Notes under the pieces: model-generated | Told to the model about the DNA's origin: nothing | What the model saw: only the letters and a program-made list of their open reading frames with translations | The model's database searches: none | IMG/VR virus record: IMGVR_UViG_3300046453_000093 | Span: 26,875 to 90,874 of that record | DNA from: a virus | Taxonomy: Duplodnaviria > Heunggongvirae > Uroviricota > Caudoviricetes | DNA length: 64,000 bases | Reading direction: 5' to 3' (one strand) | Position numbers and translations under genes: made by a program | In this document: piece by piece, positions 2,253 through 39,042 of the stretch | Layout of the letters: every line of letters starts with the position of its first letter | Position numbering within the stretch: the stretch's first letter is position 1

Positions 2253-2263
2253 AGGTGATTCAA

Positions 2264-2716: not shown

Positions 2717-2727
2717 GAGGTGACAGG

Positions 2728-3906: not shown

Positions 3907-3923
3907 GGATTGAAGGTGAAAAG

Positions 3924-5021: not shown

Positions 5022-5023
5022 TT

Positions 5024-6031
5024 TTGAAGGGTGGAGGGGAAATGGAAATATACAGAGCGAAATCACCTCTAAGGGTTTCTTTTTCAGGTGGTGGGACAGA
5101 TATAGAGCCATATTTAATAGATTATGGCGGTTGCGTTTTAAGTACCACAATTAATAAGTATTGCTATGCTACTCTTATTCCAAGAGATGATAATCAAGTG
5201 ATTATTCATTCTCATGATTTCAATCTGACAGTGAAGTATCAGCTTGACGAAAAAGACTCACTAGAAGACGACCTGAAGCTTGTAAGAGCAGTTATAAGGA
5301 GACTTGATGTAAGACAAGGGTTCGAAATTAAGATTCACAGTGACGCTCCTGTGGGTTCAGGATTAGGGTCTTCGTCCAGTTTGGTAGTTTGTCTAATTGG
5401 AGTTTTGTCAAAATGGATGAATCTATCTTTGTCGCTATATGATATTTCAAGAATGGCTTATGAGATTGAAAGAGTAGATATGAATATAAGTGGAGGTCAT
5501 CAAGACCAGTACGCAAGTGCATTTGGCGGGTTTAATTTTATAGAGTTCTTTGACAATAAAACCATTGTTAATCCATTAAGAATTAAAGAAAGCTATCTAA
5601 ATGAATTGGAATATAACCTGCTTCTATGTTTTACAGGTAAGACTAGAATGGGAGAAAGCATTATCAAAAAACAGGTTAGTAGTTATAAAGATAATGTGCA
5701 GTATCTTCATGAGTTAAAAAGTCTTACTTTAGATATGAAGAATTCCCTATTGACAGGAAATGTTCATGAATTTGGTTCGCTTTTTCACGATGCTTGGGAG
5801 AATAAAAGGAAGCTTACCAGTGGTATTTCAAATCCACATATTGATGAATTATATGAGATTGGCAGAAATGCGGGTGCTTTAGGTGGAAAGCTTTTAGGTG
5901 CAGGTGGCGGTGGCTACTTGCTTTTTTATTGTACTGACAAGCAAAAAGTTGGGAAAGCATTGCAAGATGCAGGTGGACAATTAGTAGATTTTAACTTTGA
6001 TTATAAGGGGTTAACGACATGGAAAATATAA
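5024..6031 (+). CDS. hddA: GHMP-family sugar kinase, D-glycero-D-manno-heptose 7-phosphate kinase (HddA-like)
   Basis: GHMP motif PVGSGLGSSSSLVVCLIG. N-terminal PLRVSFSGGGTD. Context between gmhA, gmhB and hddC. Alternative start at 5042 (MEIYRAK). Confidence 0.7.
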   Translation: MKGGGEMEIYRAKSPLRVSFSGGGTDIEPYLIDYGGCVLSTTINKYCYATLIPRDDNQVIIHSHDFNLTVKYQLDEKDSLEDDLKLVRAVIRRLDVRQGFEIKIHSDAPVGSGLGSSSSLVVCLIGVLSKWMNLSLSLYDISRMAYEIERVDMNISGGHQDQYASAFGGFNFIEFFDNKTIVNPLRIKESYLNELEYNLLLCFTGKTRMGESIIKKQVSSYKDNVQYLHELKSLTLDMKNSLLTGNVHEFGSLFHDAWENKRKLTSGISNPHIDELYEIGRNAGALGGKLLGAGGGGYLLFYCTDKQKVGKALQDAGGQLVDFNFDYKGLTTWKI

Positions 6032-6570
6032 TTAATGAACACTTAGAAGTTGTAGAATCAATGAAAAGTCTTGTTTCAAAGATTGACTTAATTGCTGATG
6101 TAATTATTCAAGCTTATGAAGATGGAAATAAAGTTTTGATTTTTGGTAATGGTGGAAGTGCAGTAGATTCTGAACACTTCACCACAGAATTGGTTAGTCG
6201 TTTTAAGTTTGACAGAGAAGGATTAAATGCAATCAGTCTGTCAAGTAATGTTGCTACTCTAACTGCCATTGGGAATGATTATGATTTTGATTCAGTGTAT
6301 TCTAGACAGGTAAAGGCATATGCAAATCAGGGCGATATTGTAATTGGTATTACTACAAACGGATTTTCACCAAATGTAATTAAGGGTTTAGAAAAGGCGA
6401 TTGAATTAAAATGTATTCCAGTTCTAATCACAGGAAACAAGAATATTGACAATGAGTATATTACACTAAATATTAATTCCAATAATACAGCACGTATTCA
6501 AGAAGCTTACCTACTAGCTATTCATATGATATGCGAAAAGGTAGAAAGAGTATTGTTCGGTGAGAAATAA
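6019..6570 (+). CDS. gmhA: sedoheptulose-7-phosphate isomerase (SIS domain), GmhA
   Basis: IFGNGGSAVDSEHFTTELVSRF matches the GmhA signature GNGGSA-DAQHF--EL. 183 aa. Confidence 0.85.
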   Translation: MENIINEHLEVVESMKSLVSKIDLIADVIIQAYEDGNKVLIFGNGGSAVDSEHFTTELVSRFKFDREGLNAISLSSNVATLTAIGNDYDFDSVYSRQVKAYANQGDIVIGITTNGFSPNVIKGLEKAIELKCIPVLITGNKNIDNEYITLNINSNNTARIQEAYLLAIHMICEKVERVLFGEK

Positions 6571-7072
6571 AACTGTTTTTCTAGATAGAGATGGAGTTAT
6601 TTGTGAAGATATTCACCATCTACATAAGGTAGAACAACTGGAATTGATAAATGGTACAAAAGAAGCAATTCGAGCATTGAAAGATAATGGATATCTAGTC
6701 ATTGTCATAACGAATCAGTCAGTAGTCGCAAGAGGACTTGTAGACGTATTTGGAGTCATTACAATTAATAATCACTTAAATAACATGGTTGACAACCTGA
6801 TTGACGACTTTTTGTTCTGTCCTCACTTGCCTACAGATGATTGTTTATGCAGAAAGCCGAATATTCAGCTTATCAAAAATGCAAGTCTTTATTATGATGT
6901 AGATATTTTCGAATCATATATAGTTGGTGATAAGTCAACCGATATTCAAGCAGGGTATAATGCGGGGCTAAAAACAATCGCTGTGAGAACAGGGTATGGA
7001 GAAATGCCTGAATATGCTGACTACAAAGCTGACAATCTTTTAGACGCTGTGAGGAAAATAATATGCAAATAG
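6560..7072 (+). CDS. gmhB: D-glycero-D-manno-heptose 1,7-bisphosphate phosphatase (HAD family), GmhB
   Basis: VFLDRDGVI HAD motif I. CPHLPTDDCLCRKP matches the GmhB zinc-binding CPH...C-CRKP. 170 aa. Confidence 0.85.
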   Translation: MRNKTVFLDRDGVICEDIHHLHKVEQLELINGTKEAIRALKDNGYLVIVITNQSVVARGLVDVFGVITINNHLNNMVDNLIDDFLFCPHLPTDDCLCRKPNIQLIKNASLYYDVDIFESYIVGDKSTDIQAGYNAGLKTIAVRTGYGEMPEYADYKADNLLDAVRKIICK

Positions 7073-7701
7073 CAGTAATTCTATGTGGTGGAAAAGGAAC
7101 AAGATTATTTCCTTTAACAAGGGAAATTCCTAAACCAATGTTACCAATTAAAGGCAAGTCTGTATTAGAATATCAAATTGAATTTCTTAGAAAAAATAAT
7201 GTAAAAACTATCTATCTAGCTGTTGGATATTTGAAAGAGCAGATTATTGATTATTTTAAAGATGGTTCTAATTTTGGTGTTGAAATCAAATATCTTTATG
7301 ATAATTGTGAGGGAACAGGCGGTGCGTTAAGAGGATTAAAAACGCTACTTGGTCTTAATACTCCTATTCTAGTAATGAATGGGGACACATTGTTTGATGT
7401 TGACATTCAGGATATGGTAAATCATCATAGTGAATCAATCACTATAGCAGTTGCCAATGTAGAAAACCCTGATAGATACGGTGTAGTTCAAGATGGAAAG
7501 ATTCAAGAAAAAATTAAGGTTGATAGAGGTTTGGTTTCAATAGGTTTATATATTATTGAACCTGATGTTTTCAGTCTGATTTTTGATGGATACTGCTCAT
7601 TAGAGAAAGATATTTTTCCATTGTTAAAACAAGGATTTTATCAATATGAAGGCGATTGGTATGACATGGGTACGATGGAAGTTTATGAAGAAGTGAGGTG
7701 A
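7063..7701 (+). CDS. hddC: D-glycero-D-manno-heptose 1-phosphate guanylyltransferase-like nucleotidyltransferase (HddC-like)
   Basis: N-terminal ILCGGKGTRLFPLT sugar-nucleotidyltransferase motif. ~210 aa. Context. Nucleotide specificity (GDP vs other) cannot be read from sequence. Confidence 0.7.
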   Translation: MQIAVILCGGKGTRLFPLTREIPKPMLPIKGKSVLEYQIEFLRKNNVKTIYLAVGYLKEQIIDYFKDGSNFGVEIKYLYDNCEGTGGALRGLKTLLGLNTPILVMNGDTLFDVDIQDMVNHHSESITIAVANVENPDRYGVVQDGKIQEKIKVDRGLVSIGLYIIEPDVFSLIFDGYCSLEKDIFPLLKQGFYQYEGDWYDMGTMEVYEEVR

Positions 7702-8363
7702 AATATATGGCACTAAGAGCATCTTTGAATTCAAATGTAAATGATAGAAGTAAGTGGATTGGTTCTGTTGATGGTCAAAATATTCCAATTGTCACAAGGC
7801 ACTCTGCTTCAGGTACATCTGAGACAGTTCTTATTTACATCTTTAATGATGGAAATCGTGACAGCGATTCAGAGCCAATGAATTTAGAGTATAGAAATGT
7901 CACTATTAAACCAAGAGGTAAGAGAACAAGGATTCTTACAAGCCTTGGAGAAGACATAGCACCATATGTAAATACAATTCCTATTGAAGACCCAAAATGG
8001 TATGGAAGTGGCACTAAAATATTAACAGACCCTATAGTTTTGGGTGGAACTCAAATTCGAGAAGAATTTTGGGTTAAAAGCATACAAGGAAATAACTTAA
8101 TAGTTGATAGGGGTCAAAACAATTCTACAGCTTTAACTTTACCCAATAGAATGTGGATTGAAGCTTACCCTGACCATTTATATCTTAGTTTGACAGGTAA
8201 AGATGGTACTTGGGTACAAGGTAGTCAATTACTATTGCCTGATATTTTGGAAGGTTGGACACCAATCAAGGTATATGTGAGAGTTTCGACAGGCGCATTA
8301 AAAACTCAAATGAAAATAGATTCATTTTTATCTATTAATGGTGATGAATATCCTAAGTTTTAA
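7698..8363 (+). CDS. hypothetical beta-rich protein, paralog of 8388-9152; translationally coupled to hddC (likely true start ATG at 7707, MALRAS...)
   Basis: Shares motifs with the next ORF (MAL N-terminus, YIFNDG / YVYNDG, NLEYR / NLRYE, IKPRGK / LKPKSF). Overlaps hddC stop. RBS gaggtg. Confidence 0.5.
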   Translation: MKYMALRASLNSNVNDRSKWIGSVDGQNIPIVTRHSASGTSETVLIYIFNDGNRDSDSEPMNLEYRNVTIKPRGKRTRILTSLGEDIAPYVNTIPIEDPKWYGSGTKILTDPIVLGGTQIREEFWVKSIQGNNLIVDRGQNNSTALTLPNRMWIEAYPDHLYLSLTGKDGTWVQGSQLLLPDILEGWTPIKVYVRVSTGALKTQMKIDSFLSINGDEYPKF

Positions 8364-8387
8364 AAATAATAAAGGGGGAATTACCCA

Positions 8388-9152
8388 ATGGCTTTACAAT
8401 TATTAAAAGATTTCACTGTAACAGGTGGGAGATATGTAAATTTAATCACAATGGACACACCATTGACAATTACACAAGATGGTGGGATTGACGATATTAA
8501 TACAATAGTACCAACTTATTTTTATGTGTACAACGATGGAAAAAGGCGTGACCCAATGTTTGACCCTGTAGATGGTACAGATATGAATTTAAGATACGAA
8601 CAAATTATTTTAAAACCAAAATCTTTCCAAACAGTTATTATTTCAGCAGGAGGTGGAAGTAATGGTACTTCAACTAGATTATATCTTGGTGCAGTTTCAG
8701 TTACAACTCCCGCAGTTATGAGGATAGAAATTGGTTCAGTATTAGCTTTAACTCAAGGTGTAAACACAGAAGATGTTTTAGTTATGAAAATTGGTGGAGA
8801 TGCTTACGGTTCTTATGTTGATGTAATTAGAAACTATCGAAATTCATCTACAACTCTATCAGCCTTGAATATTGTTCCAGGAAATACTGTTGATGTAAGC
8901 ACAAAACACATTTTTCTTTCAAAAACAACTGATTTTTCAGGCTCGGTTGGAGGGTCACAGTTGACTCTTAGTAATGTAACTAGTTCGATTACAGTTCCTT
9001 CAGCAAACCCTGATGTAACTCAATATCAAACTATTTATATTAAAGCTGTTCCTCAACTGCAAAAATCAGGTTCAACTCAGATTACTCGTATTCCAACCCA
9101 ACATAAAACTGATGTATATTTTGAAATCTCATATAGAGAGTTACCGAACTAA
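8388..9152 (+). CDS. hypothetical protein, paralog of 7698-8363
   Basis: Paralogy as above. RBS aaaggggg. Confidence 0.5.
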   Translation: MALQLLKDFTVTGGRYVNLITMDTPLTITQDGGIDDINTIVPTYFYVYNDGKRRDPMFDPVDGTDMNLRYEQIILKPKSFQTVIISAGGGSNGTSTRLYLGAVSVTTPAVMRIEIGSVLALTQGVNTEDVLVMKIGGDAYGSYVDVIRNYRNSSTTLSALNIVPGNTVDVSTKHIFLSKTTDFSGSVGGSQLTLSNVTSSITVPSANPDVTQYQTIYIKAVPQLQKSGSTQITRIPTQHKTDVYFEISYRELPN

Positions 9153-9165
9153 GAGGGTAGTGATT

Positions 9166-9393
9166 ATGAATATGGTAAAAAGATATATTTGGAATATATT
9201 AATCTCTATTGACCAATTGCTCAATACATTGCTCTTTGGTTCTCCTGATGAAACAATGTCCTCTCGAATGGGAAAGCATGTTGCCAAGAAAGATTGCCTA
9301 TTCTGTAACCTTGTATGCAAGTTTCTTAATCTCTTTGAAAAAGACCATTGTAAAAAGTCTATTGAAGAAGACGAAGGAGAGCCAATGAAATAA
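9166..9393 (+). CDS. small Cys/His-containing hypothetical protein (possible zinc-binding)
   Basis: Start adjusted to MNMVKRY after RBS agagggtag. Contains C-x2-C-x3-C and H-C cluster (KKDCLFCNLVCKF...DHCKK). Confidence 0.35.
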   Translation: MNMVKRYIWNILISIDQLLNTLLFGSPDETMSSRMGKHVAKKDCLFCNLVCKFLNLFEKDHCKKSIEEDEGEPMK

Positions 9394-9436
9394 ATGTTTT
9401 TAAAGAGATTAAGTATTATTTAAAGGGGGCATATAA

Positions 9437-10270
9437 ATGTCATTACAATTTATTTCTGTAAATACACCTTCCAATATCATTGCGTATATTGGAAGTGGAA
9501 TTCCAGTAATTACAAGCCATAATGTATTCACTACAATAGTAGATGATTCAGATTTTGGCATAAAAGATTTACTTATTGATAAGTCATCTCATAAATTCGA
9601 TGAAATCATGGCAGGAAAACCATATATTGATGTTTACTATGATGGTGCTAATATTCAAGGAACTCTAATGAATGTAGATTTCAATTTCCCATCAATTGCA
9701 AAAGTATCATTGTTTGGAGGAAGTTATGATTGTGAGGTAAATGGAGATTATAAGTTTGTCTTCCCTGTTTCTATTCACCCTGCTATTTCAGAAAAACGTG
9801 TGAATGTAACAATTAAAGCTGAAGGATTTCCACCTACATCTATTGAAATTGGTGGAAGTAATGAAAACGCAAATGCTATAACTTTTCTTGACGAGAATGG
9901 AGTGTACAACGTTACACCTTCAAGCACTGAAGAATTAGCTTTTTATTGGCAAAACAAACTGGTAGATTTACAATGGAGTGCTGTAGACCTCGCAACAATT
10001 ACAGGATTATTGGCTCACACTATGTTTACTCATGTCTTGCCTAATATTGAACAATTAAATTTAACTGTAGAAGAACAAAATGGCTTACAAGAACTTCAAA
10101 CAAATCTTTTACCTTTGATTTCTACCAGTCTTTCAACTATTAAGCCTGACGAAAATTCAATGGATATTCATTATGCTTCCTATCGTTACCATTTATATCA
10201 AGCAAATGAAGCTATACAAAAATACATAGAAGATAAAACTAATATTTCGAAATATTCTCCATTTGAATAA
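9437..10270 (+). CDS. hypothetical protein
   Basis: RBS aaaggggg. 277 aa. No recognisable motifs. Confidence 0.45.
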   Translation: MSLQFISVNTPSNIIAYIGSGIPVITSHNVFTTIVDDSDFGIKDLLIDKSSHKFDEIMAGKPYIDVYYDGANIQGTLMNVDFNFPSIAKVSLFGGSYDCEVNGDYKFVFPVSIHPAISEKRVNVTIKAEGFPPTSIEIGGSNENANAITFLDENGVYNVTPSSTEELAFYWQNKLVDLQWSAVDLATITGLLAHTMFTHVLPNIEQLNLTVEEQNGLQELQTNLLPLISTSLSTIKPDENSMDIHYASYRYHLYQANEAIQKYIEDKTNISKYSPFE

Positions 10271-10295: not shown

Positions 10296-10493
10296 ATGGA
10301 AGGTTGTTTGGTACTGTGTGAACATTGCCCAATTGAGAAAACCCCAAATGGTTCTTGTTATGACATGAATGGTGTTTGGACACTAATTCAGGAAGAATGG
10401 GTTTATCAAGGGACATGGAAATGTAATCTATACAATAAAGAAATGGACATATGTGATTGTCCAATGGAAATGAATACCGAAATGGGAGACTAG
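10296..10493 (+). CDS. small Cys-rich hypothetical protein (7 Cys in 65 aa)
   Basis: Good RBS atgaggtga. Followed by hairpin aatgggaga-ctagt-tctcccatt. Confidence 0.4.
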   Translation: MEGCLVLCEHCPIEKTPNGSCYDMNGVWTLIQEEWVYQGTWKCNLYNKEMDICDCPMEMNTEMGD

Positions 10494-10544
10494 TTTCTCC
10501 CATTTCATTGACTACGAAAATAAGGGAAAGGTGGTGGATTGTGA

Positions 10545-13500
10545 TTGGAAGAATTATTACTCGAAAGACAGTTGAATAGCAAAACTTATCTAAATGAAGA
10601 TGGTACTCGTACCATGAAATATTTTGGTAGACCTATTCACTTTGATAAGAATGGCAAACTCGAAGAAATTGATGTAAATTTTCATCTAAATACCACATCC
10701 AACCCTGCATATTATTTATTTAATACAGTTAATAATAGTTTCAGAATAGGATTATCGAAAAATTTATCTATTGATAAATCTATTAAATTTTCTTTTAGAT
10801 ACGATGGTGTTGGTGACATATTCACAACCATTAAGGGTTTAGCCTTATACGATTCTGAAAAAGACGAATATACAATTTTTGAAAAACCTCAAGCGAATAC
10901 AGGTTCTATTGAAAACAATATCGCCAAATATCCAAATGTATTCAATGGAATGGATTTTGAATTTCATTCCTTAGATGACAAGTTGAAAGAATATATTTAT
11001 CTAAATGACAAGGGCAATATTCCAAATCCTACGGATTATGGATATAATCCTGAAACTACATATTTAATTGTGCTTAATGAACTAAGCACAAACTTGTTAG
11101 AACTTCAATACAATGAAGAACAGCTAGAAGTTTACAATGAAGGAATCCAAAAATTAATCTCCCCAAAAGAATGGGCAAAGGATAATGACCAAAAGGATTT
11201 AACCATTCTCAACAACTATAATGCTGACACTGGCGAATATTATTTCGGTGTTCCTTATTCAGAGATTCAGAACGCCAATTTACCTATAACAATTGACCCT
11301 ACGTGGCAGACTTCGGGAGTTCCAACAGTTCAAAACTTTGATTGTACTTATGAATTTGACTCTTTTGAAGGCGGCTATTATACCTATCCTAACCTAACCA
11401 CTTTAGGTATGTTTCCTGAGAATGGAGGTTATATCTCTCAACGGAGTATGATTAAATTTGATTTATCAGGACTTCTGGCTTCATTTAATAATGTTGTAAA
11501 AGCGTATTTTAATTTTACGTTTCAGTCAACCAATGCTTTCTATTTGTCTATATTGACTAGTTATTCTCCAAATTCTCAAAACATGTTTGAGAATATTATC
11601 CCTAATTCGACTGGATTTTTAGTAGCTAGTTCACCTGTAGATGTTACAGCAGTAGTAAAAAATTGGCTTTCTAACCCTAGTTCAAACTATGGTTTTGGTC
11701 TTGATTATTTCGGTGGCAATACCTCAAGAATTTATGGTTTAGGTAGTGGTGTCAGCACCCAACCTTATCTTAGCATTGATTACGTTTCTAGTGTTTTAGG
11801 TTTTACTGGTTTGCCAACTTCTAACTCTATCAAGTGGACATGGAATGCGTTAGCAGAAGCAGAAAAATACGTTATCTATGATAATAATAATGTCAAACTT
11901 GCTGAAATACCAAGTGGAACATTGACATGGACTGAGACAGGCTTATCGCCAAACACCTCGTATACTCGTAAAATTCGATATGTAACAGGCGGAGTCGAAC
12001 AAACTCCTGAAACAGTGGCGAGTGCTACAACTTATACGGTTTTACAGCCTGTTAGCAATTTAGTTGCTACTAATGTGACGAGCAATAGTGCGACTTGGCA
12101 ATGGGGCGACATAGTTTTTGGAAATGAACTCGCCCCTCTGTTTGACAGTGGGAGATGGTCTACTAGTTCCACTGTAACATTTAATAGCCCAACGAAGTTA
12201 ACCATTGATAATACAAGCGGGTCTTATTTTGGGTCATATGTAGAAATAACAGTAAAGTCGAACACTAACTATCTGTTAAATTTATTAAAAGGTGGCACTG
12301 GTGCAAGCACTAACGGATATGTCAGAATTACAGGTGTTGTTAATGGTGTTGTAGAAGCCACAAATATAGCTAACAATAACACTGGTGTTGCAATTCCTTT
12401 TAATAGTGGAACTTACTCTTCTTTGAGAATTTTCTTTTATGCAAATTACACTAGTGGAGGAATTTCTTTTGAGAATGTTTCTATCAAAGAAACAAACTCA
12501 GGAATCATTTCTTACGAAATACTAGATAAAAATGGTGTTTTATTGTATACGACTCCTGATGGAAACACAAAGACATGGACTGAAAACAATTTACGATATA
12601 GCTCTAATTATATCAGACAAGTTCGTGTGGCTAGAAATGGTGAGAGAAGTAGCAATGTTCAGGTGAGTGTGACTACGAGTGCTAGACCTATAAATATGTC
12701 AGCGCAAACTATTACGGTTAATCCTAGTGCGGATACCTATAATAATGGCTTTAATCCTACCATAAATTATGGAACAGCTACACAGTTTTCTGTAGGTAGA
12801 GGTGCTTCAGTATCTTATCTATATAAGGGATTTTTAAAATTCCCTATCCCGCTTTCTACTGACATTACACTAAATACCGCTACTCTAAAATTGTACAGTA
12901 CCACAGCAATTAGTACAAGTTATAATTGGTTTATAGAAAATGTGAATAGTCAATGGGACGAAACAACGTTAAACTACAATAATATGCCAGTTAGCAATAC
13001 AACAACACCGTTGTATAATGTAAGTAGGGCAATTTCCGCTAACATAGATAGTGACTTTGTTCTTGATGCCACACTGGTTAAAAATTGGATAAATAATCCT
13101 TCTTCAAATTATGGGGTATCAATAAGGCATAATGGAACTACTAATGGTAATTTTGCCCAATTTAATTCAAAAGAATCAGCTGATGCTACAAAGATACCAA
13201 GGCTTGTAATAAATTATACACCTTCTATTCCACCACTCAAGCCAACAGTCCTATCAGGGGCAGTTTTATCGTCTTCCTCCATTCGTTGGTCTTGGAGTGC
13301 AGGAGATGGCACAGCAACCGAATATCGCATTTACAATGCTGATACAGACCAATTGATTGGAACTTCTTCGACTAGTAGCTTTGATGAAAGTGGAGTTACA
13401 TTAGGCAACACATACAATCGCTATGTGGTTGCATACAACTCAGGTGGAGAGTCGCCTGTAACAAGTACAACATTGCATACTTCGCCTTTGGCTAATTTTA

Positions 13501-15188
13501 GAGGTATTCCACAAACTGCTACTTCTATTAAATGGGCTTTCGACCTGTTTACCACTGTTGACAAAGTTATTATTTATGACAATAACAATGTGAAGCTGAC
13601 TGAAGTCTTAAGTGGTACGACTGAGTGGGTTGAAACAGGGCTACTACCAAATAGTACTTACACTAGAAAAGCAAGATATGTAAAAAATGGTGTAGAAGAC
13701 AGTGTATATGTTGTTGTCTCTAATAATACCTATGCCACTTTAGTTGTCCCTCAAAGTGCAAGTGGAGTCGCTGTGAATACTAATACCATTACTTGGTCTT
13801 GGGATGATACGGTAAACCAAGGTATCACTGGATTTGAAGTACTAGATAAATTCAACAATGTAAAATACAGTGGTAGCAATACGGTTAAGTCTTGGACTTC
13901 CAAACAATTAAGATACGGAACAGATTATGAGCGATATGTGAGAAGTGTTCGTAATGGTGAAAAAAGTGGATTAGTTAAGATAACTGCTAGGACACAGGAC
14001 AGACCTGCAAATATAGATGAGATGACGACATATGAAACTTTGAATGTTAGTCAGGATGTTTATATCAATTCAAGCACTCCGACTTCATCATCATCAACAG
14101 GTGCTATAAGCTACATTGGAAAATCAGGAACTACTTTATATAGGTATTTAATTAAATTTAATACTTCAACCATTCCAATTGGACGTGAATTAAAAACCGC
14201 AAAAATTAGGATTTATGAAACCTCCTATTCAGGTACTCCATCACAAATGGGACTTTATAAAATTACACAAAGTTGGTTAGATACTGCAAATTGGAATACT
14301 CAACCATCTTGTGAAAGTATTTCGATTGCTCAAATACCATTTTCTTCGACAACTGGAAAATATTATGAAGCCAATTTACCTATCGCAAATATCCAAGATT
14401 GGGCAAATAATAATAATGGGTTATTAATCAAGTCAGACGAAGTATCGTCAGGGTATGTACAAGTAAATACTTATGAGGGATTATTCCAACCATTTTTGGA
14501 CATATCGCATGAGTCGCCAATTGCCCCATTATCACCTAGCAATTTACAAGGCTCAATCAAAACAGGCTCAAGTATTTTATGGCAGTGGAATGAAACAACT
14601 TCTATTAACGCTCAAGGCTATCGTATTTACAATGCTGACAATGACCAATTGATTGTTGAATTACCTGTCGGAATTACAAGTTATGAAGAAACTGGCAGAG
14701 TTATGGGAATAACATATAATCGCTATGTGGTTGCATATAATTCCTATGGTGAGTCTCAAGTTGTTTTGACCTCTTATTTGTTCGACCAATCACCTCCAAC
14801 TAATATTGTTGGCACACCACAATCTTCAAGTCGCATAATTTGGACATTCGAGCCTGTGAGTGGATTTACAGAATATCGTATTTATTACTTTAATTCAACG
14901 AACAATACAAATACTCTTTTCGCTAGGGTAAAATATGAAAATGGGCAATATAACACGTATTTAGAAAGTAACTTAACGACTCCAATAGGTGGTTTCGGAA
15001 ATCCTCAGTTACCACGTAACGGATTGAACCCAAATACGACAGAGACAATAAAGGTAACGACAGTTGGAGAAACATATGAAAGCAGATATTCTAACTCAGT
15101 TAGTGCAACAACTTACACGCTACCACCAATGAGAACAATCAGTGGTCAAAAACTAGGTTTGAATAATTTAAAATGGACAATTATATAG
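10545..15188 (+). CDS. giant (1547 aa) virion-associated adhesin-like protein: repeated fibronectin type III domains plus three CBM-like (DNRLRE-type) beta-sandwich modules
   Basis: Repeated FN3 pairs (EYRIYNADTDQLIG...YNRYVVAYNSGGES twice; IKWTWNALAEAEKYVIYDNNNVKL...TSYTRKIRYV twice). Three modules sharing LVKNWLSNPSSNYGFGL / LVKNWINNPSSNYGVSIRHNG / IQDWANNNNGLLIKSDE. Very S/T/N-rich. Confidence 0.6.
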   Translation: MEELLLERQLNSKTYLNEDGTRTMKYFGRPIHFDKNGKLEEIDVNFHLNTTSNPAYYLFNTVNNSFRIGLSKNLSIDKSIKFSFRYDGVGDIFTTIKGLALYDSEKDEYTIFEKPQANTGSIENNIAKYPNVFNGMDFEFHSLDDKLKEYIYLNDKGNIPNPTDYGYNPETTYLIVLNELSTNLLELQYNEEQLEVYNEGIQKLISPKEWAKDNDQKDLTILNNYNADTGEYYFGVPYSEIQNANLPITIDPTWQTSGVPTVQNFDCTYEFDSFEGGYYTYPNLTTLGMFPENGGYISQRSMIKFDLSGLLASFNNVVKAYFNFTFQSTNAFYLSILTSYSPNSQNMFENIIPNSTGFLVASSPVDVTAVVKNWLSNPSSNYGFGLDYFGGNTSRIYGLGSGVSTQPYLSIDYVSSVLGFTGLPTSNSIKWTWNALAEAEKYVIYDNNNVKLAEIPSGTLTWTETGLSPNTSYTRKIRYVTGGVEQTPETVASATTYTVLQPVSNLVATNVTSNSATWQWGDIVFGNELAPLFDSGRWSTSSTVTFNSPTKLTIDNTSGSYFGSYVEITVKSNTNYLLNLLKGGTGASTNGYVRITGVVNGVVEATNIANNNTGVAIPFNSGTYSSLRIFFYANYTSGGISFENVSIKETNSGIISYEILDKNGVLLYTTPDGNTKTWTENNLRYSSNYIRQVRVARNGERSSNVQVSVTTSARPINMSAQTITVNPSADTYNNGFNPTINYGTATQFSVGRGASVSYLYKGFLKFPIPLSTDITLNTATLKLYSTTAISTSYNWFIENVNSQWDETTLNYNNMPVSNTTTPLYNVSRAISANIDSDFVLDATLVKNWINNPSSNYGVSIRHNGTTNGNFAQFNSKESADATKIPRLVINYTPSIPPLKPTVLSGAVLSSSSIRWSWSAGDGTATEYRIYNADTDQLIGTSSTSSFDESGVTLGNTYNRYVVAYNSGGESPVTSTTLHTSPLANFRGIPQTATSIKWAFDLFTTVDKVIIYDNNNVKLTEVLSGTTEWVETGLLPNSTYTRKARYVKNGVEDSVYVVVSNNTYATLVVPQSASGVAVNTNTITWSWDDTVNQGITGFEVLDKFNNVKYSGSNTVKSWTSKQLRYGTDYERYVRSVRNGEKSGLVKITARTQDRPANIDEMTTYETLNVSQDVYINSSTPTSSSSTGAISYIGKSGTTLYRYLIKFNTSTIPIGRELKTAKIRIYETSYSGTPSQMGLYKITQSWLDTANWNTQPSCESISIAQIPFSSTTGKYYEANLPIANIQDWANNNNGLLIKSDEVSSGYVQVNTYEGLFQPFLDISHESPIAPLSPSNLQGSIKTGSSILWQWNETTSINAQGYRIYNADNDQLIVELPVGITSYEETGRVMGITYNRYVVAYNSYGESQVVLTSYLFDQSPPTNIVGTPQSSSRIIWTFEPVSGFTEYRIYYFNSTNNTNTLFARVKYENGQYNTYLESNLTTPIGGFGNPQLPRNGLNPNTTETIKVTTVGETYESRYSNSVSATTYTLPPMRTISGQKLGLNNLKWTII

Positions 15189-15207
15189 AAAGGGGGTTGA
15201 ATAGTTA

Positions 15208-17691
15208 ATGACGTATCTTAGAGGATATAAGCTTTATGAACCTCTTGACATTTTGAACCCCAATCCATCAAGTGATAGATTGATAGTTACTTTTATTGAA
15301 GGAAGTGACTATCAATCAACTGATGGTAGTATTATTTTTACAGAAACAACTGTCAATTCAACATATCTAAACGGTGGGGAAACAGAATATCGCTACTTTG
15401 TAGCTTTTGATGATGAAAATATAGGATTGCCTTCAAATATTTTTTCTATTTTAAATCTAATGCCACCTACAAATGTTACAGCATATGCAACAGAGTATGA
15501 TGAAGTACAAACAGAGTTTACAATTGCTGAATTTGCAAGTGGATACAAATACTCATTAAAAGATTTATCTACAGGAGAAATAGTCGTAAGTGATTTGTCT
15601 AGTGATGGCTCTATATTTGGATTAAAAGCTAATTCAACATATGAAATAAAATTAGCTTCAATAAATGACGATGATGAAGTTACTGAATGGAGTAATTCTA
15701 TTCAAGTGGCTACTTTAAAACTTTTTCTTTTAAGTTCAACACCATCGGACAAATACATCTCATGGCAATGGGAACACGAAAATATTGGTCTAAATGTAGT
15801 TAAATTCGAACTAATTAATAAGGATGACAATGTTGTTCTTTATTCAGGTTTAAATACAACTTATGGTCAAATTAGTCCAACAAAAATTCACAACAATGCT
15901 GTAAAAGTAACTTATGACAATGCAGTCACAAGGGAAACAAGACTAATAACATCAGCAGTTTACAACAATAATACAGATAAATTTAGTTTTGGTCAGCTAA
16001 CAACTAAAGATGATAAAAAATCTATTGCTTCTATGAAAATTGAAATTTATCGTGATTTGCTATTGAGTGCAATGTATAAAAATACATATTTTGCAGATAA
16101 TCTAAAAACATTTAGTAATAGCAATATACTTTATTCTGATTTAAAAGCATTTGGTTCATATAGATTATCGTTAATCAACTATAGACATGATGACTATAGT
16201 TTTTACCAAGATAGTATTTCGAATGGTTCATTCAAGACTTATGTGGAAATAAAAACGCATCAAACATATTCAAGAAATGTTGGATTAAAACTCTCATTAA
16301 ATAATAATATTACAGACAAATATAAAATTAACTATGATTATTTTGCAAACAATAAGTCTATACTATCAATAAAACCACTTGTGTTTAACTCGCAATCTAG
16401 AGTAATACAATCAAAATCAGTGACATATCAAGATGGGAAAATTTTAAATCAACCTAAATACAATATCTATAATAATCGCACGTCACCATTTGGGCTTAAA
16501 TTGGATTATTTCAACTTTATGCAGACACTTGTAACAAGGCAGAGACAGACAGTATTCAACCCTGCAACATCGTATGATGTTAACCATGTTGACGTTGTTT
16601 TTAACACAACGATAACCAATGTTGATTTACAAAGTCAGGTTAACAAAGTGAGAATACTATGTATTGGTGATAGTATCACAGCGGGAGCGCCAAGTTATGA
16701 CCCACAATATGGCGGGACTGTATGGATTGCTGACTTAATTACTGGAAAAACAAAGACTCGTAACGTAATAGAATCACAATACCCATATTGGCTACAAAAA
16801 AGATTAGGTATTGATGACTTTGAAATTATCAACGAAGGGTCAGGACGTAGAACCTCAACTGAAGTTGAATACCATGTAAGAAGTCAAATGGAAGCATACA
16901 AACCTGAATATGTAATTATTATGATTGGTACAAACGATATTTTTCAATCTCAAGATAGTGGAATAACAAATCTTCAGAACGTGGTAAACACAACGTTAAA
17001 TAATATCCGCAAAACAGTTGATAAAGTTAGAGAGTTTAATGGTGTTCCAATTCTAGGGACACAGTTGCCACGTAACTCAATTGTTCCCATTGAAGCTAAA
17101 AATGCTCTGAGAAATCTGAATGCGGGGATAAAAAATCTCGGTATCGAATACGGTATTGACATTATTGATTGGTACGATGAATTTGTACAAAAAGACAATA
17201 CTGGTAAAGAAAATGGAGTTTTACGCTATGATTTAACCGTAGATGATACTCACCCATCGGTTGCAGGATACAAGAAAATGGCATACACTATCAACTTAGG
17301 TATCTTCAATTCGTTTAGAGCAAGTCTAAGACTATTTGGTTCAATGTTAGGAAATGATGTTGATTATTCGACAGAAGAGTCGAAGGTTCAACCTGACCCA
17401 TATACTTTTAACTACTCTATCGTACTCCCTGAACTGAGAAGACTACAAAGATATGTGTTCTCTAAGTATATTAAAAACACAGGAAATTCATGGGGGCTAT
17501 TTGTAATACAGTTAAATGACCCTGACAATATTTGTGAAATATGGGATGCAAAAAATAAAGTATGGACAAATACTTTGATAGGACAATTAGCACCTAATCA
17601 AGTAATGGAATTCAGAATGAGATATATAATGCCATCAACAGGCACTAAAAAACAAGTGGATTTCAACATAGATTACATTGTTAAGAGATAG
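15208..17691 (+). CDS. 827-aa FN3-repeat protein with C-proximal SGNH/GDSL hydrolase (esterase/deacetylase) domain
   Basis: ILCIGDSITAG (GDS block I). IIMIGTNDI (block III). DDTHPS (catalytic D-x-x-H). N-terminal FN3-like repeats. RBS aaaggggg. Confidence 0.65.
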   Translation: MTYLRGYKLYEPLDILNPNPSSDRLIVTFIEGSDYQSTDGSIIFTETTVNSTYLNGGETEYRYFVAFDDENIGLPSNIFSILNLMPPTNVTAYATEYDEVQTEFTIAEFASGYKYSLKDLSTGEIVVSDLSSDGSIFGLKANSTYEIKLASINDDDEVTEWSNSIQVATLKLFLLSSTPSDKYISWQWEHENIGLNVVKFELINKDDNVVLYSGLNTTYGQISPTKIHNNAVKVTYDNAVTRETRLITSAVYNNNTDKFSFGQLTTKDDKKSIASMKIEIYRDLLLSAMYKNTYFADNLKTFSNSNILYSDLKAFGSYRLSLINYRHDDYSFYQDSISNGSFKTYVEIKTHQTYSRNVGLKLSLNNNITDKYKINYDYFANNKSILSIKPLVFNSQSRVIQSKSVTYQDGKILNQPKYNIYNNRTSPFGLKLDYFNFMQTLVTRQRQTVFNPATSYDVNHVDVVFNTTITNVDLQSQVNKVRILCIGDSITAGAPSYDPQYGGTVWIADLITGKTKTRNVIESQYPYWLQKRLGIDDFEIINEGSGRRTSTEVEYHVRSQMEAYKPEYVIIMIGTNDIFQSQDSGITNLQNVVNTTLNNIRKTVDKVREFNGVPILGTQLPRNSIVPIEAKNALRNLNAGIKNLGIEYGIDIIDWYDEFVQKDNTGKENGVLRYDLTVDDTHPSVAGYKKMAYTINLGIFNSFRASLRLFGSMLGNDVDYSTEESKVQPDPYTFNYSIVLPELRRLQRYVFSKYIKNTGNSWGLFVIQLNDPDNICEIWDAKNKVWTNTLIGQLAPNQVMEFRMRYIMPSTGTKKQVDFNIDYIVKR

Positions 17692-17720
17692 GGAGATTTT
17701 CTCTATCTCTATTTTTATTG
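17685..17720 (+). terminator. putative rho-independent terminator
   Basis: gagatag-ggagattttct-ctatctc hairpin followed by tatttttatt. Confidence 0.45.
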
Positions 17721-17733
17721 AGAGAAGGGGTGT

Positions 17734-18831
17734 ATGTTTGTGAGTAATGATACACAAAATCCTGTTAGATTAGAATTTGTAAGAGGAGATACATTTGAGA
17801 TAATTGATATTGGTGACTTGGGAAATGTTTATAGAAACAGTGGCAACAATATTTTACCCCTAATGATAGTTAATTCAGGCGGTAGAGATGCAGTTAACGT
17901 TAAAGCTAAATTTATCCCATATGAAAAAGAAGGTATAATTGATGATATTTCTGAAAAATGGAAACTATTAAGCTACGACACTTCAAGTGATTTTGCAGAA
18001 GAGTTGGATTTGCCTGATATTAAAAGTGGACAATTTATGACAGGATTTAAAATATATTCTGAAAACTTCAATAATATCATAACAACCTATCTTCCACCTG
18101 ATTGGGATACTATAGGTCGTTGGGAGACATATTCTTTAACCGAATCAGGGAATCAATTCAATTCCTATGTTCAGCATATTGCTGATACTGTTGATATTAC
18201 GACAGGTCGTGCTATTCCGATGCACTTTCCTGAAACAAAGAATTGTGATGTAAGTGTTCAAATTGCGACTCCAAGATATAACTTTGGAGGAATTCAGCTA
18301 AGAATGAATGCATCTACAGGTTATGGATATGCAATAATCATGTATCCTGACCCTGACACGATTCGACAAATTAATGAATATTATCGTGAGATTATTGGTG
18401 CAAGCTATGTGCCAATTGATACTTGGAATGAATCAGCAATTGGAATTGGAAAAGTGAATTACAGGGATTTAGACAACATGGCTTTTCCTAACATTTATAA
18501 TAAATTTCACTGGCTACCAAAAGGTACGGATTATCGTCTAGAGAGAGATACCTTGAGAGTTGAATTAAAAGAGAACGTCTTCAACGTTTGGGTTAACGAT
18601 GACTTTAAAGGAAAGTATATAGACCCTAACCCTATCTTAGAACAAGGTAAAGTGTCATTAATTGCGGGCAGGAGATATGATACAAGGGTTATCTTTGATA
18701 ACTTGCAATACAGAATTGAAACAAATCGTGGTGTCCTATTTGTCAAATCCGTTGTACCTGCAAACCCACTAGATTCTGTTACAAATGATAATATGTATCA
18801 TTCAAATCTATTAATTGAGTATTCAGAATAG
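17734..18831 (+). CDS. hypothetical structural protein
   Basis: RBS gagaagggg. 365 aa. No motif recognised. Confidence 0.45.
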   Translation: MFVSNDTQNPVRLEFVRGDTFEIIDIGDLGNVYRNSGNNILPLMIVNSGGRDAVNVKAKFIPYEKEGIIDDISEKWKLLSYDTSSDFAEELDLPDIKSGQFMTGFKIYSENFNNIITTYLPPDWDTIGRWETYSLTESGNQFNSYVQHIADTVDITTGRAIPMHFPETKNCDVSVQIATPRYNFGGIQLRMNASTGYGYAIIMYPDPDTIRQINEYYREIIGASYVPIDTWNESAIGIGKVNYRDLDNMAFPNIYNKFHWLPKGTDYRLERDTLRVELKENVFNVWVNDDFKGKYIDPNPILEQGKVSLIAGRRYDTRVIFDNLQYRIETNRGVLFVKSVVPANPLDSVTNDNMYHSNLLIEYSE

Positions 18832-18842: not shown

Positions 18843-19742
18843 ATGCCCTTAATTGGATACGCTATCGGAAATATAGATGAACACTTTATTATTTCTGATG
18901 TATATAAGCCACAAAATTTCGAAGCGGGTTGGTATTTTATACCAAATAACTTTCCGAGTTACACCTTCATTTCAGCAGATATTGACCCAACCGTTGACGA
19001 AGTTGTAAAAGATGGAGATAAATTCATAATACAGGGTTTTGACCCTTATTTAGAAAGCATGGACTTTCCTGAAAACTACAAGCCAAAAAAGACCGAATAT
19101 GTCAAAGATAATTATTATCATTTTCCATCAGGTGTACCATTCGATTATCAGATGGGCTATTATTGGGAGATGTATGGAGATTTAGACTCTCCTTATCTAT
19201 TCATTCCTTATTTTGACCATAGTACATATGGAAGTATCGCATGGTTAGATTTTAACACACCAATAGAAAGATTCAATGCTCAGTTGACACTTGTTGAACA
19301 CTTACTTAAAGGAATTGTATTCCCATTTGTTGAAAAAGTTGTAGTTGATAAAACACTGGAATTTCCATTGATTGAAAAAATTGTTTCTTTATTAAGTTGT
19401 GATATTGAGATGGTTTCTCCAACATCAATGATTCTTAAATGGTCAGGTGAAAGAGTTCCATATATCGAGATATTAAGAAAGGAAATCAGCGATAGCAGTT
19501 TTGGTGAACCAATAGCCCAAGTAGCATTTGGAGATTTATCATATCCAATTGAAATTGACAACAACTCATTTACCTATAGTGTTCGTGGAAGCAATGGAAC
19601 AGGACAGAGTAATGTTGAGGTGACAATTGGAGTTAAAGGAAAGACAACAATTGAAACTGAAATTAATTTAGGCGACTTTGTTAAAATTTACGAAGGTAAT
19701 ATTGGTTTTGTAGATATATTTGAAACCGAAATAAGTATTTAA
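18843..19742 (+). CDS. hypothetical structural protein
   Basis: Tightly packed after the previous gene. 299 aa. Confidence 0.45.
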   Translation: MPLIGYAIGNIDEHFIISDVYKPQNFEAGWYFIPNNFPSYTFISADIDPTVDEVVKDGDKFIIQGFDPYLESMDFPENYKPKKTEYVKDNYYHFPSGVPFDYQMGYYWEMYGDLDSPYLFIPYFDHSTYGSIAWLDFNTPIERFNAQLTLVEHLLKGIVFPFVEKVVVDKTLEFPLIEKIVSLLSCDIEMVSPTSMILKWSGERVPYIEILRKEISDSSFGEPIAQVAFGDLSYPIEIDNNSFTYSVRGSNGTGQSNVEVTIGVKGKTTIETEINLGDFVKIYEGNIGFVDIFETEISI

Positions 19743-22121: not shown

Positions 22122-22840
22122 TGGACATTAAAGAGTTTTATATATTAGGACTACCAATCAACACTGAAATTGGTGAATGTAATTTTCTTAAGGTAAAAGA
22201 ATATCCTGACTATGTTGTGGATTTACAAACTATCTCACTAACTAAGTCTCACATAATTAATAAATATAATGAAATAAATAATTTGAAAAGAGACTTGGAG
22301 TTTGAAAAACTGATAAAAGAGATGGAAAAAGTAAGCCTATATACAATGGCAACATGGATTCCTGAATTAAAAGATTCATATATTAATATTTTTTCTAAAG
22401 CATTTAGAGATGAAGAAGTTCTTTTAGAAATTAATGAGAAGAACTTTGATTATTATCGAAAGCTAATTATGGAAATGAATTGGATGAAAGAGGAAAAAAT
22501 TAATCCCAATCCTGAGATTCAAAGGGCTATCGAGCGCAGTAAGAGGGTTAAATCATTAGATGGGGATAGGTTGGAATTCGCAGATATTGTATCGAGTGTA
22601 GTTGGCTACAACGGTCTAAGTTACAAAGATATTAACGAATTCACAATCTATCAATTATACATGACATTCTATCGAATTGCTCAGATAAAAAATTATGATA
22701 CCTCAACGCTATTTGCAACCGTATCAACAGACAAGGTTAAAATTGAAGGTTGGAGTAAACATATTAATTTTTATCAAGAAGACAATCACGCAATAACAAA
22801 AGAAGAATTAGACGAAAAATCTAATAGTTTATTTGGTTGA
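22118..22840 (+). CDS. hypothetical protein
   Basis: Overlapping-start coupling. 240 aa. Followed by terminator. Confidence 0.4.
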   Translation: MMDIKEFYILGLPINTEIGECNFLKVKEYPDYVVDLQTISLTKSHIINKYNEINNLKRDLEFEKLIKEMEKVSLYTMATWIPELKDSYINIFSKAFRDEEVLLEINEKNFDYYRKLIMEMNWMKEEKINPNPEIQRAIERSKRVKSLDGDRLEFADIVSSVVGYNGLSYKDINEFTIYQLYMTFYRIAQIKNYDTSTLFATVSTDKVKIEGWSKHINFYQEDNHAITKEELDEKSNSLFG

Positions 22841-22842
22841 AA

Positions 22843-22878
22843 TAAGTAGTCGTTTATCGACTACTTATTTTTATATTT
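22843..22878 (+). terminator. rho-independent terminator
   Basis: taagtagtcg-tttat-cgactactta hairpin plus T-run. Confidence 0.65.
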
Positions 22879-33793: not shown

Positions 33794-33808
33794 AAGGAGG
33801 TGTAAATA

Positions 33809-36763: not shown

Positions 36764-36774
36764 ATAATTAATGA

Positions 36775-36808
36775 AAACACGTTAAAATTTTAGCGTGTTT
36801 TTTATTTT
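36775..36808 (+). terminator. rho-independent terminator
   Basis: aaacacgttaaaattttagcgtgttt hairpin plus tttttatttt. Confidence 0.7.
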
Positions 36809-36820
36809 GGATAAAAGGAA

Positions 36821-38962: not shown

Positions 38963-38974
38963 TAAATATAATAA

Positions 38975-39007: not shown

Positions 39008-39042
39008 TTGAATTTTAAAGGATAGAAAGGGTGAATCAATAA

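Follow-up and report, generated by a model that had tools for sequence, protein, structure and literature searches.

Within the 64,000-nucleotide stretch of the IMG/VR virus record IMGVR_UViG_3300046453_000093 analyzed here (positions 26,875 to 90,874 of the record; hereinafter, the window), two adjacent late genes encode giant proteins, dubbed here A (1547 amino acids, aa) and B (827 aa), which combine fibronectin type III (FN3) domains with carbohydrate-binding modules (CBMs) of the CBM96/DNRLRE family in the case of A and with an SGNH hydrolase domain in the case of B. The reading we favor, at a probability of roughly 0.55, is that A and B are accessory proteins of the particle surface, positioned close to the head or the neck, that bind host glycans and modify the receptor, and that are encoded in the operon of late structural genes of an uncultured, SPβ-like siphovirus. 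Under this reading, A is most likely a long, flexible, non-enzymatic, lectin-like fiber that consists of an N-terminal domain joined to a CBM96 module, FN3 spacers, two more CBM96 modules and a nested β-rich insertion. B is the constant partner of this variable giant, with FN3 spacers, a middle region, a catalytically intact SGNH domain and a C-terminal β-sandwich. A preliminary description of the same DNA, made from the sequence alone, had proposed a carbohydrate-binding adhesin accompanied by a glycan O-deacetylase, which appears to be a reasonable functional reading of the domain content. The alternative given there, that the proteins are head fibers or decorations, seems reasonable as well, and the position of the genes favors the head or neck over the tail tip. 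The two open reading frames (ORFs) and their domains are laid out as follows (all on the plus strand; residue numbers refer to the respective protein).

10545-15188, plus strand: ORF A, 1547 aa; N-terminal domain followed by CBM96 and FN3 modules in a repeated, bead-on-a-string pattern
10545-11339, plus strand: N-terminal domain of A (residues 1-265), a rare family
11340-11768, plus strand: CBM96/DNRLRE module 1 (residues ~266-408), divergent; carries VKNWLSNPSSNYG
11781-12671, plus strand: FN3-1 (residues 413-494) and FN3-2 (502-522 and 649-709), from self-comparison and the in-house FN3 model
12693-13220, plus strand: CBM96/DNRLRE module 2 (residues 717-892), canonical; the best Pfam and NCBIfam stretch
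13233-13967, plus strand: FN3-3, FN3-4 and FN3-5 (residues 897-1141), from Pfam, self-comparison and the in-house FN3 model
14016-14513, plus strand: CBM96/DNRLRE module 3 (residues 1158-1323), with the degenerate motif IQDWANNNNG; contains TPTSSSSTGAISY
14526-15113, plus strand: FN3-6 and FN3-7 (residues 1328-1523), from self-comparison and the in-house FN3 model
15114-15185, plus strand: conserved C-terminal tail of A, 24 residues; LPPMRTISGQKLGLNNLKWTII
15208-17691, plus strand: ORF B, 827 aa; head (residues 1-85), two FN3 units (86-252), middle region (253-478), SGNH domain (480-700), C-terminal β-sandwich (706-827)
16645-17307, plus strand: SGNH/GDSL hydrolase domain of B, with Ser489, Gly544/546, Asn576 and Asp679-His682

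Both ORFs lie exactly where the preliminary description had placed them, and an independent gene caller predicted the same two products on the source contig. A starts with TTG and B with ATG, each behind a Shine-Dalgarno sequence of its own; the intergenic gaps are small and the orientation is that of the structural genes. No signal peptide or transmembrane segment was found in A or in B. The E-values of the hidden Markov model (HMM) matches, along with the occurrence of ORFs of 1547 and 827 codons in DNA with 33% G+C, exclude a chance origin of the two proteins.

The NCBIfam model NF033679 (DNRLRE_dom) matched three stretches of A with 141.8 bits (cut-off 34, E=2e-41), and Pfam CBM96 (PF24517) scored 105.4 bits (cut-off 26, E=3.5e-30); two homologs of A, P0002 and P0003, contain three DNRLRE stretches apiece. 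A profile of seven phage modules from these three proteins aligned with the solved structure 8wab_A over profile positions 8-167 of 170 (E=3.4e-10) and with 7vbo_A, the founding alginate-binding CBM96, over the whole domain (E=4.9e-8), and the CBM96 module of the founding paper belongs with NF033679 (PMC9971899). On the strength of these family-model scores, all above the cut-offs, and of the profile matches to solved CBM96 structures, the DNRLRE identity that had been proposed before is correct, DNRLRE and CBM96 being the same family. In a phmmer search of full-length A against PDB sequences there was no match; only the module profile found structures. A weak Pfam match of A to the TGF-beta propeptide is attributable to the structural resemblance of CBM96 to that fold (PMC9971899).

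The ligand of these modules is probably not the one bound by the founding member. The Lys/Arg ladder through which 7vbo binds alginate (K22, K25, K27, K31 and R36; SKQLKFKGTSKGSDDR) faces non-basic residues in the phage profile, and the CBM96 modules of A are net acidic (K+R ≤ D+E). Given that the ladder bears on ligand specificity and not on family membership, these features are consistent with a CBM96 fold that is kept and a ligand that probably differs from alginate. The block [VI]xxW[LI]xNPSSNYG, originally reported as common to all three modules, is present in strict form in two of them, at residues 371 and 845; the third has IQDWANNNNG instead. The stretch TPTSSSSTGAISY (residue 1178), previously viewed as an S/T-rich linker that would make A a plausible target of the adjacent glycosylation system, is no linker at all: it aligns with the conserved NYGTAT segment inside the folded module 3, and nothing computed points to A or B as glycosylation targets.

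Pfam fn3 detects four stretches in A (E=1.2e-14), and the map given above was built from fragment self-comparison and an in-house FN3 model, the latter recognizing seven FN3 units, one of which is split by an insertion of ~125 aa. The repeat unit of the protein is CBM96-FN3-FN3-FN3. Duplicated FN3 pairs, as previously noticed, are recovered by self-comparison at 41-51% identity (residues 413-493 and 978-1059, 51%; 903-990 and 1334-1426, 49%; 651-718 and 1091-1157, 41%). The FN3 units resemble the FN3 extensions of phage major tail proteins in the PHROGs database and also a virion structural protein of Bacillus phage 0305phi8-36; Ser and Thr together make up 22% of A. Nested in FN3-2, between strands B and C, is a β-rich domain of ~125 aa (residues 523-648, nucleotides 12111-12488) that has no family match and may be a fourth binding module.

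The N-terminal domain belongs to a family with only 126 representatives among 1.84 billion, for which a profile search against PDB sequences yielded no credible solved relative. This domain occupies the N-terminus of proteins of very different lengths, where, among 60 sampled cases, it is accompanied by CBM96 in 23, by disaggregatase repeats in 20, by TGFb-propeptide-like hits in 12 and by RHS repeats in 4. Judging by this co-occurrence, the first ~405 residues of A, that is, the N-terminal domain along with the first CBM96 module, appear to have been taken over as a unit from surface proteins of cells. Many of the matches to the family start at residue 25-40, which is compatible with the presence of signal peptides in the cellular versions.

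For the SGNH domain of B, Pfam Lipase_GDSL_2 gave E=8.6e-21 (75.7 bits, cut-off 32.9) and Lipase_GDSL gave E=7e-16 (59.4 bits, cut-off 23.6). The signature motifs are GDS at 487, GTND at 574 and DDTH at 679-682, and across six homologs of B with 39-65% identity, G487-D488-S489, G544/G546, G574-T575-N576-D577 and D679-x-x-H682 are invariant; SGNH blocks I (Ser), II (Gly), III (Asn) and V (Asp-x-x-His) are all intact. The SGNH assignment, which had been staked on the conservation of the catalytic Ser and His, therefore stands, with both residues invariant in the six homologs. The closest solved relatives are the GDSL-like proteins 4iyj, 3p94 (Bacteroidales) and 4rw0. NCBIfam matches to acetylxylan esterases are sub-threshold (E=2.6e-5, 22.7 bits against a cut-off of 700). 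It is plausible, from these similarities, that B is a carbohydrate acetyl-esterase; with respect to the depolymerase role that had also been entertained, no lyase or glycosidase domain was found.

Outside of the hydrolase domain, the two FN3-like units of B that had been noted before are backed by hhalign, with FN3 probabilities of 86% for residues 86-170 and 96% for 171-252, although Pfam fn3 alone remained sub-threshold (E=0.09); the best Foldseek matches of this region are tandem FN3 arrays. The middle region is poorly conserved, with no family match, and secondary structure prediction for B shows no long helices beyond the SGNH domain. The AlphaFold 2 model of B was used only for noting the FN3-like regions and the C-terminal β-sandwich, which is modeled with a predicted local distance difference test (pLDDT) score of ~70; residues 480-700 are modeled as alternating strands and helices with a pLDDT of only 55-69.

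The window phage is an SPβ-like siphovirus. YomX, YomW, YomV, YomU, the tape measure, Dit and Tal are recognized by tblastn as well as by PHROGs and precomputed Pfam labels; the labels on the source contig comprise YonG_N, YonD_N, YonB, YomX, YomW, YomV, YomU_Tube, YomO and YomN, and the 242-aa protein encoded at 22913 shares 36-50% identity with the YomU proteins of 33 records from the SPβ group. The upstream gene order, read from the 7.3 kb of the source contig that precede the window, is YonG, a gene in the terminase position, a gene in the portal position, YonD, a 160-aa gene in the scaffold position, YonB (the capsid Pfam family, just upstream of the window) and a 155-aa gene that stops at window position 342. 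Only beyond this point does a block of sugar metabolism genes (hereinafter, the sugar island) start, followed by small ORFs, A, B, genes for proteins of 365, 299, 126, 126 and 95 aa, YomX, YomW, YomV and the tube protein YomU.

Thus, A and B are located inside an insertion of ~20 kb, with the capsid and yonA-like genes on one side and the head-tail connector genes on the other; the insertion consists of the sugar island at 383-7701 and a ~13-kb block of β-sandwich proteins. In SPβ, BUCT082 and Mammaliicoccus phage phi127, the connector genes follow the capsid/yonA genes with nothing in between. The original placement of the two genes between the sugar island and the tail genes accordingly holds, and is more precisely one between the capsid/yonA-like and the connector genes. 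Their position upstream of the major tail protein, in contrast, had been considered atypical and is not odd in itself, head-proximal accessory proteins being encoded there; what is unusual is the ~20-kb insertion, which the characterized SPβ-like phages all lack. A separate tail-tip module comes downstream, with Dit at 33020, Tal at 33809, a 713-aa tail protein and a 1467-aa DUF7359/F5-F8-type-C protein, followed by an M15 endolysin with a peptidoglycan-binding domain. The Dit, Tal and fiber genes span 33020-43446, and A and B precede the connector and tube genes. The ORF in the tape-measure position (25011-33023) encodes 2670 aa, compared with 6858 nucleotides (about 2285 aa) in yomI of SPβ; under the rule of thumb of ~1.5 Å of tail length per residue, this would imply a tail of roughly 400 nm.

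Relatives of this cassette are few. Among 5.8 billion clustered proteins, those of A, beyond itself, are only P0002 (55% identity, full length) and P0003 (43% over the ends), compared with four for B and six for the neighboring 365-aa protein, and IMG/VR contributed one relative, on a 136.7-kb contig. Neither megablast of the region nor tblastn of B against 50,697 phage records produced a match, and A matched in these records only an FN3 stretch of Bacillus phage 0305phi8-36. The related loci (denoted L004 to L009 and L011) reveal a division into constant and variable parts. B is conserved end to end in every one of them, and downstream of it there is a ~360-aa gene in all loci and a ~296-aa gene in the window, L007, L008, L009 and L011; L008 and L011 encode the 126-aa proteins, and L007 encodes one of them. 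Directly upstream of B there is always a gene for an FN3-containing giant (with FN3 arrays where assigned) but the lectin-like cargo differs. Giants with three CBM96 modules are encoded in the window, L004 and L006, whereas the L011 giant carries a SPRY domain on a six-FN3 array and is preceded by genes with FN3+SPRY and a discoidin domain. In L007, there is no CBM96 and no assigned lectin module in the giant, and the SGNH protein has an N-terminal extension of ~330 residues without a family match, for which a LamG-like look is only a reading. Such an arrangement, in which the enzyme and scaffold stay the same and the binding modules are exchanged, is a hallmark of the machinery of host recognition. 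Upstream of its giant, L011 also encodes at least three further lectin-type genes (1-250 and 452-3606); the ending ...SRLSF is common to one fragment and a 652-aa FN3+SPRY protein, a 384-aa protein has a discoidin domain, and the set looks like a paralogous family of binders.

The constant and variable parts meet at a conserved junction. Irrespective of their architecture, all giants encoded upstream of SGNH genes end in LPxxxxxxGxxxGxNNxKWTI[SIR] (~21 aa), a motif that occurs once per locus, and all SGNH proteins carry RGY[KR][LI][YF].P at the start or, in L007, after the N-terminal extension instead. The junction maps to 15114-15230 in the window, ~14560-14660 in L004, ~17020-17120 in L006, ~9910-10010 in L007, ~3215-3345 in L008 and ~9870-10000 in L011. 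The tail of the giant resembles strands A-B of an FN3 domain, and the head of the SGNH protein begins like strand C. With the in-house HMM, tail+head chimeras of L008 and L011 aligned as one continuous FN3 (19-23 bits, versus 9-10 for the tail alone, 5-8 for the head alone and 5-8 for chimeras with shuffled tails), and this lineage is the only one in which the HMM supports a continuous junction FN3. The hhalign alignment of the six chimeras crosses the junction with a score of 24.9 and a probability of 29%, compared with a maximum of 22.5 in 20 column-shuffled controls. By the same method, the head of B (residues 1-85) alone is not FN3-like; Pfam fn3, which is uninformative as a test here, matched no head or chimera in any construct. 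We view these results as modest support for an FN3 domain split between A and B, with docking by strand complementation as a hypothesis; the conserved tail of the giants could serve as a docking peptide, mark a site of recombination or be left over from gene fission.

A more far-reaching version of the same idea, which we find doubtful although worth stating, is that the cassette functions as a plug-and-play adaptor. The ~21-residue half-FN3 peptide would dock on the conserved N-terminal head of the SGNH protein, with its RGYKLYEP residues, by β-strand complementation, so that interchangeable lectin arrays are mounted non-covalently on a constant enzyme and a capsid or neck anchor; in the lineage of the window, the adaptor would also be coupled to a pathway for an O-acetylated heptose glycan. 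If so, the phage possibly decorates itself with, reads and edits the same class of glycan.

The favored reading, that is, accessory glycan-binding and receptor-modifying proteins near the head or neck, translates into the following mechanism. Synthesis of A and B would take place late in infection and without secretion signals, and the two proteins would then be placed on the particle close to the head or neck, the site suggested by the gene order. The multiple, individually weak CBMs of A, displayed on FN3 spacers, would provide an avid but reversible first contact with a cell-wall glycopolymer of the host, and B would strip O-acyl, probably O-acetyl, groups from the bound glycan. This deacylation might either expose the receptor for the distinct proteins of the tail tip or allow the particle to move and be released, as a receptor-modifying enzyme would, with irreversible binding left to those dedicated proteins; the variable giant could be coupled to B through the conserved C-terminal peptide. 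With respect to capsid decoration, the position after the capsid and yonA-like genes and the FN3 arrays both fit; no capsid-binding domain was identified, and a literature search returned nothing on decorations.

Several observations weigh against this reading. Family and PDB searches revealed no recognizable capsid-, portal- or tail-binding domain in A or B, nor do the two proteins contain a trimeric coiled coil or a β-helix typical of fibers and spikes. As the modules are net acidic and do not keep the basic ladder, the case for glycan binding comes from family membership. The AlphaFold 2 model of full-length B is poor (5 sequences, mean pLDDT 49), and the SGNH fold also serves lipases, proteases and acyltransferases, the substrate not being fixed by sequence. 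Finally, B has no relatives in 185,579 GTDB species-representative genomes, so no host was identified, and among the 50,697 deposited phage genomes there are no homologs of A or B beyond FN3-level similarity.

The surroundings of the two genes bear on the choice among the alternatives; the principal neighboring features are listed below.

383-7701: sugar island, within the late structural operon, after the capsid gene; GDP-D-glycero-alpha-D-manno-heptose-type pathway
7698-10270, plus strand: three ORFs (221, 254 and 277 aa) without a family match, traveling with the CBM96-type cassette and the sugar island
10296-10493, plus strand: small Cys-rich ORF, 65 aa, kept upstream of the giant gene
10478-10507, no strand assigned: hairpin with a 12-bp stem, just upstream of A
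17684-17710, plus strand: hairpin with a 12-bp stem and a T-run, overlapping the stop codon of B
17734-18831, plus strand: constant partner 1, 365 aa, the most conserved protein of the module; C-terminal ConA/galectin-like jelly roll
18843-19742, plus strand: constant partner 2, 299 aa, next to partner 1 in the window, L007, L008, L009 and L011; no assignable family

The 365-aa protein is 57-87% identical across the lineages, compared with 39-65% for B. Its C-terminal half, which unlike the N-terminal half was modeled with confidence, has the CBM66 of B. subtilis as the best PDB match (E=4e-5, target TM-score 0.65), and its viral structural matches are minor-tail and receptor-binding proteins of actinophages; the profiles of the 365-aa and 299-aa families yielded nothing credible when compared with PDB sequences. 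The possibility that the 365-aa gene is the capsid gene is ruled out, as YonB is encoded upstream of the window and the fold of the 365-aa protein is lectin-like. In L007 (Ga0642624_14391, 13525-15533), the homologs of the two partners are each split, into 172+195 and 139+171 aa, reflecting, apparently, either assembly frameshift errors or pseudogenes.

On the other side of the cassette, the small Cys-rich ORF (58-65 aa, with CxxCxxCP-like spacing) has counterparts at 9786-9962 in L004 and 7964-8140 in L006; it directly precedes the giant in the window and in L004/L005, whereas three genes intervene in L006. These three (8159-9969 in L006, between the small ORFs and the giant) have Pfam matches to Mom, Vut_1 (queuosine-precursor transporter family) and QueC, which suggests that the same hotspot has received a cassette for DNA base modification. 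The window contains another small ORF with Cys residues, at 9112-9393. The ORFs at 7698-8363 and 8388-9152 are paralogous (26% identity over 167 aa), are 64-76% identical to their counterparts in L004, L006 and L007, and are absent from L011; they accompany the sugar island, not B. The hairpin at 17684-17710 resembles a terminator- or attenuator-like end of the A-B cassette. A further strong hairpin (22839-22871) precedes the tube gene yomU, the bracketing or related stems being 12-14 bp long, and in L008 and L011 there is also a hairpin between the giant gene and the SGNH gene. A promoter scan detected fewer sigma-70-like sites than in shuffled sequence.

The sugar island encodes an HddA-like kinase (5024-6031), GmhA (6019-6570), GmhB (6560-7072) and an HddC-like nucleotidyltransferase (7063-7701), which make up the heptose genes, along with a 4,6-dehydratase (383-1351), a WbbJ-like O-acetyltransferase (2201-2716), two glycosyltransferases of family GT4 (2728-5021) and one 304-aa ORF without assignment; all these assignments are family-level matches, below equivalog cut-offs.

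One alternative is attachment to the tail. A and B would be tail-attached side fibers or decorations of the tail tube or baseplate, with the same binding and esterase roles, an arrangement that we regard as unlikely. The FN3 units of A match PHROGs annotated as major tail protein, the 365-aa neighbor is structurally similar to minor-tail and receptor-binding proteins, and the virion SGNH esterases described so far are domains of tailspikes or tail fibers. However, only the FN3 domains produce the PHROG matches, domains that would bind Dit, Tal or the tube were not detected, and the genes lie upstream of the connector genes YomX, YomW and YomV, 5 kb upstream of the tube gene and more than 15 kb away from the Dit/Tal/fiber cluster. 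Release from the particle context altogether is no easier to accept: A and B could be soluble late proteins, freed at lysis, that attach to the wall or matrix glycans of debris and nearby cells and remove acyl groups from them, thus preventing futile re-adsorption or loosening the biofilm. In favor of this scenario, no virion-anchoring domain was found and the cassette is bracketed by hairpins in the manner of an autonomous moron; furthermore, the ~20-kb insertion includes metabolic genes, and the unit formed by the N-terminal domain and CBM96 is typical of cellular secreted or surface proteins. Yet neither A nor B has a secretion signal, the cassette lies firmly within the structural operon and runs in the direction of that operon, the gene order shared with four further proteins, small or structural-looking, is kept across lineages with differing tail genes, and FN3 arrays of more than 1500 aa would be costly for a diffusible factor. 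On balance, we consider this scenario unlikely, too.

Turning from the host glycan to one made by the phage itself, B could edit a GDP-heptose-derived, O-acetylated glycan that the GT4 enzymes put on virion proteins, possibly including A; the SGNH domain would trim or transfer O-acetyl groups and CBM96 would bind the self-glycan. The cassette does adjoin the GmhA-, HddA-, GmhB- and HddC-like genes, the 4,6-dehydratase, the WbbJ-like O-acetyltransferase and the two GT4 genes, the same linkage to sugar genes is seen in L004, L006 and, partly, L007, and A has a Ser+Thr content of 22%, with virion glycosylation by phage glycosyltransferases in mycobacteriophages as the precedent. Nevertheless, this account seems improbable: in L011, B and its partners are present with no sugar genes in the 10 kb upstream, which makes B independent of the sugar island, and the S/T "linker" once proposed lies inside a fold. 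Finally, A and B could be a single protein, produced by programmed frameshifting or readthrough or split by a sequencing error. The end of A and the start of B do look like two halves of one FN3 domain, and in four of the six loci the frame of B is +1 with respect to that of A. In the window, the frame of A stops at 15186-15188 and that of B has a TAG at 15202-15204, one codon ahead of the ATG; both frames being closed before this start, no single shift can fuse the two proteins. The frame offset is not conserved either (0 in L007 and L011, where one or two stops intervene), a Shine-Dalgarno sequence and a start codon precede and open B in every case, and the split is seen in six independent assemblies. 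The stop-codon layout and the variable offset lead us to reject programmed recoding that fuses A and B, which is excluded in the window, and the single-protein explanation as a whole is a very long shot.

[quoted passage not shown] Like NPS, the tail-tube extension TpeX and evolved Dit, the A-B cassette would place CBMs away from the tail tip; it is encoded in the morphogenesis operon, with a variable component beside a constant one. The NPS proteins, however, combine a conserved N-terminal BppU-like ring domain with a trimeric coiled coil and one C-terminal CBM and have no separate esterase protein, whereas A, in which no such ring domain was detected, is all-β, with FN3 spacers and three CBM96 modules, and its conserved element is C-terminal. 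Searches of PHROGs, Pfam and PDB for a BppU-like ring domain or a trimeric coiled coil of the lactococcal type yielded no match for A or B, the family and PDB searches with A giving CBM96 and FN3 domains only, or nothing, and no sequence relationship of A to NPS proteins was found in Pfam, PHROGs, NCBIfam or PDB searches; a functional analogy is possible.

SGNH deacetylases are part of the tailspikes or tail fibers of Acinetobacter phage Aristophanes (PMC8471582) and Pectobacterium phage Possum (PMC9569702), and the Salmonella phage epsilon15 tailspike has an esterase domain (bioRxiv 10.64898/2026.07.31.742079). B is similar to these proteins in having intact catalytic blocks, in being a structural-type protein and in the presumed role of a receptor-modifying enzyme that acts on an acetylated host glycan. 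The known enzymes are, however, tail-tip proteins from phages of Gram-negative bacteria, whereas B is encoded between capsid and connector genes, has FN3 spacers and presumably faces a Gram-positive host; no match between B and known tailspike SGNH proteins was obtained in the 50,697-record phage collection. A shares with the alginate lyase Dp0100, the source of the founding CBM96 structure 7VBO (PMC9971899), a CBM96 embedded in an FN3 array, and differs from it in lacking a catalytic lyase domain, in the non-conserved alginate ladder and in belonging to a phage structural operon rather than to a carbohydrate-active enzyme context.

Ig-like and FN3 head decorations provide another comparison. 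T4 Hoc, T5 pb10 and phi29 gp8.5 are encoded beside the capsid gene and are dispensable, bead-like Ig/FN3 arrays that stick out from the capsid and are thought to be weakly adhesive to glycans; they are about 150-400 aa long and have a defined capsid-binding domain and no enzyme partner. A and B are like them in the position near the capsid gene and in the bead-like arrays but are far larger, and no sequence similarity to head decoration or head-fiber proteins was detected with PHROGs or in the phage genome search. At the level of the entire genome, the window phage shares YonG, YonD, YonB, YomX, YomW, YomV, YomU, YomO, YomN, YomH/Dit and YomG/Tal with SPβ, phi3T, BUCT082 and phi127, as well as a tape measure of more than 2000 aa.

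Each of the domain families described here is already known, as are glycan-binding decorations and virion esterases as elements of phage hardware. What is new is the presence of CBM96/DNRLRE modules in a protein of a phage structural operon (the one phage mention of DNRLRE found in the literature is an unstudied small ORF), the pairing of a lectin fiber with a separate, constant SGNH protein, the conserved C-terminal peptide and the placement of A and B inside an insertion that only an uncultured branch of SPβ-like phages has. CBMs away from the tail tip are being recognized in a growing number of phages of Gram-positive bacteria, the known cases being mostly dairy lactococcal phages, and the A-B cassette would extend this phenomenon to the large temperate SPβ group. 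It would also bring in the CBM96/DNRLRE family, for which only two structures have been solved and no role in phage particles has been described, and add the pairing of a multivalent lectin fiber with a separate constant esterase. CBM96 modules with a specificity other than alginate could serve as glycan probes. A constant enzyme next to a swappable lectin array amounts to a natural experiment on the exchange of host-range modules, for which the conserved C-terminal peptide is a concrete candidate coupling element.

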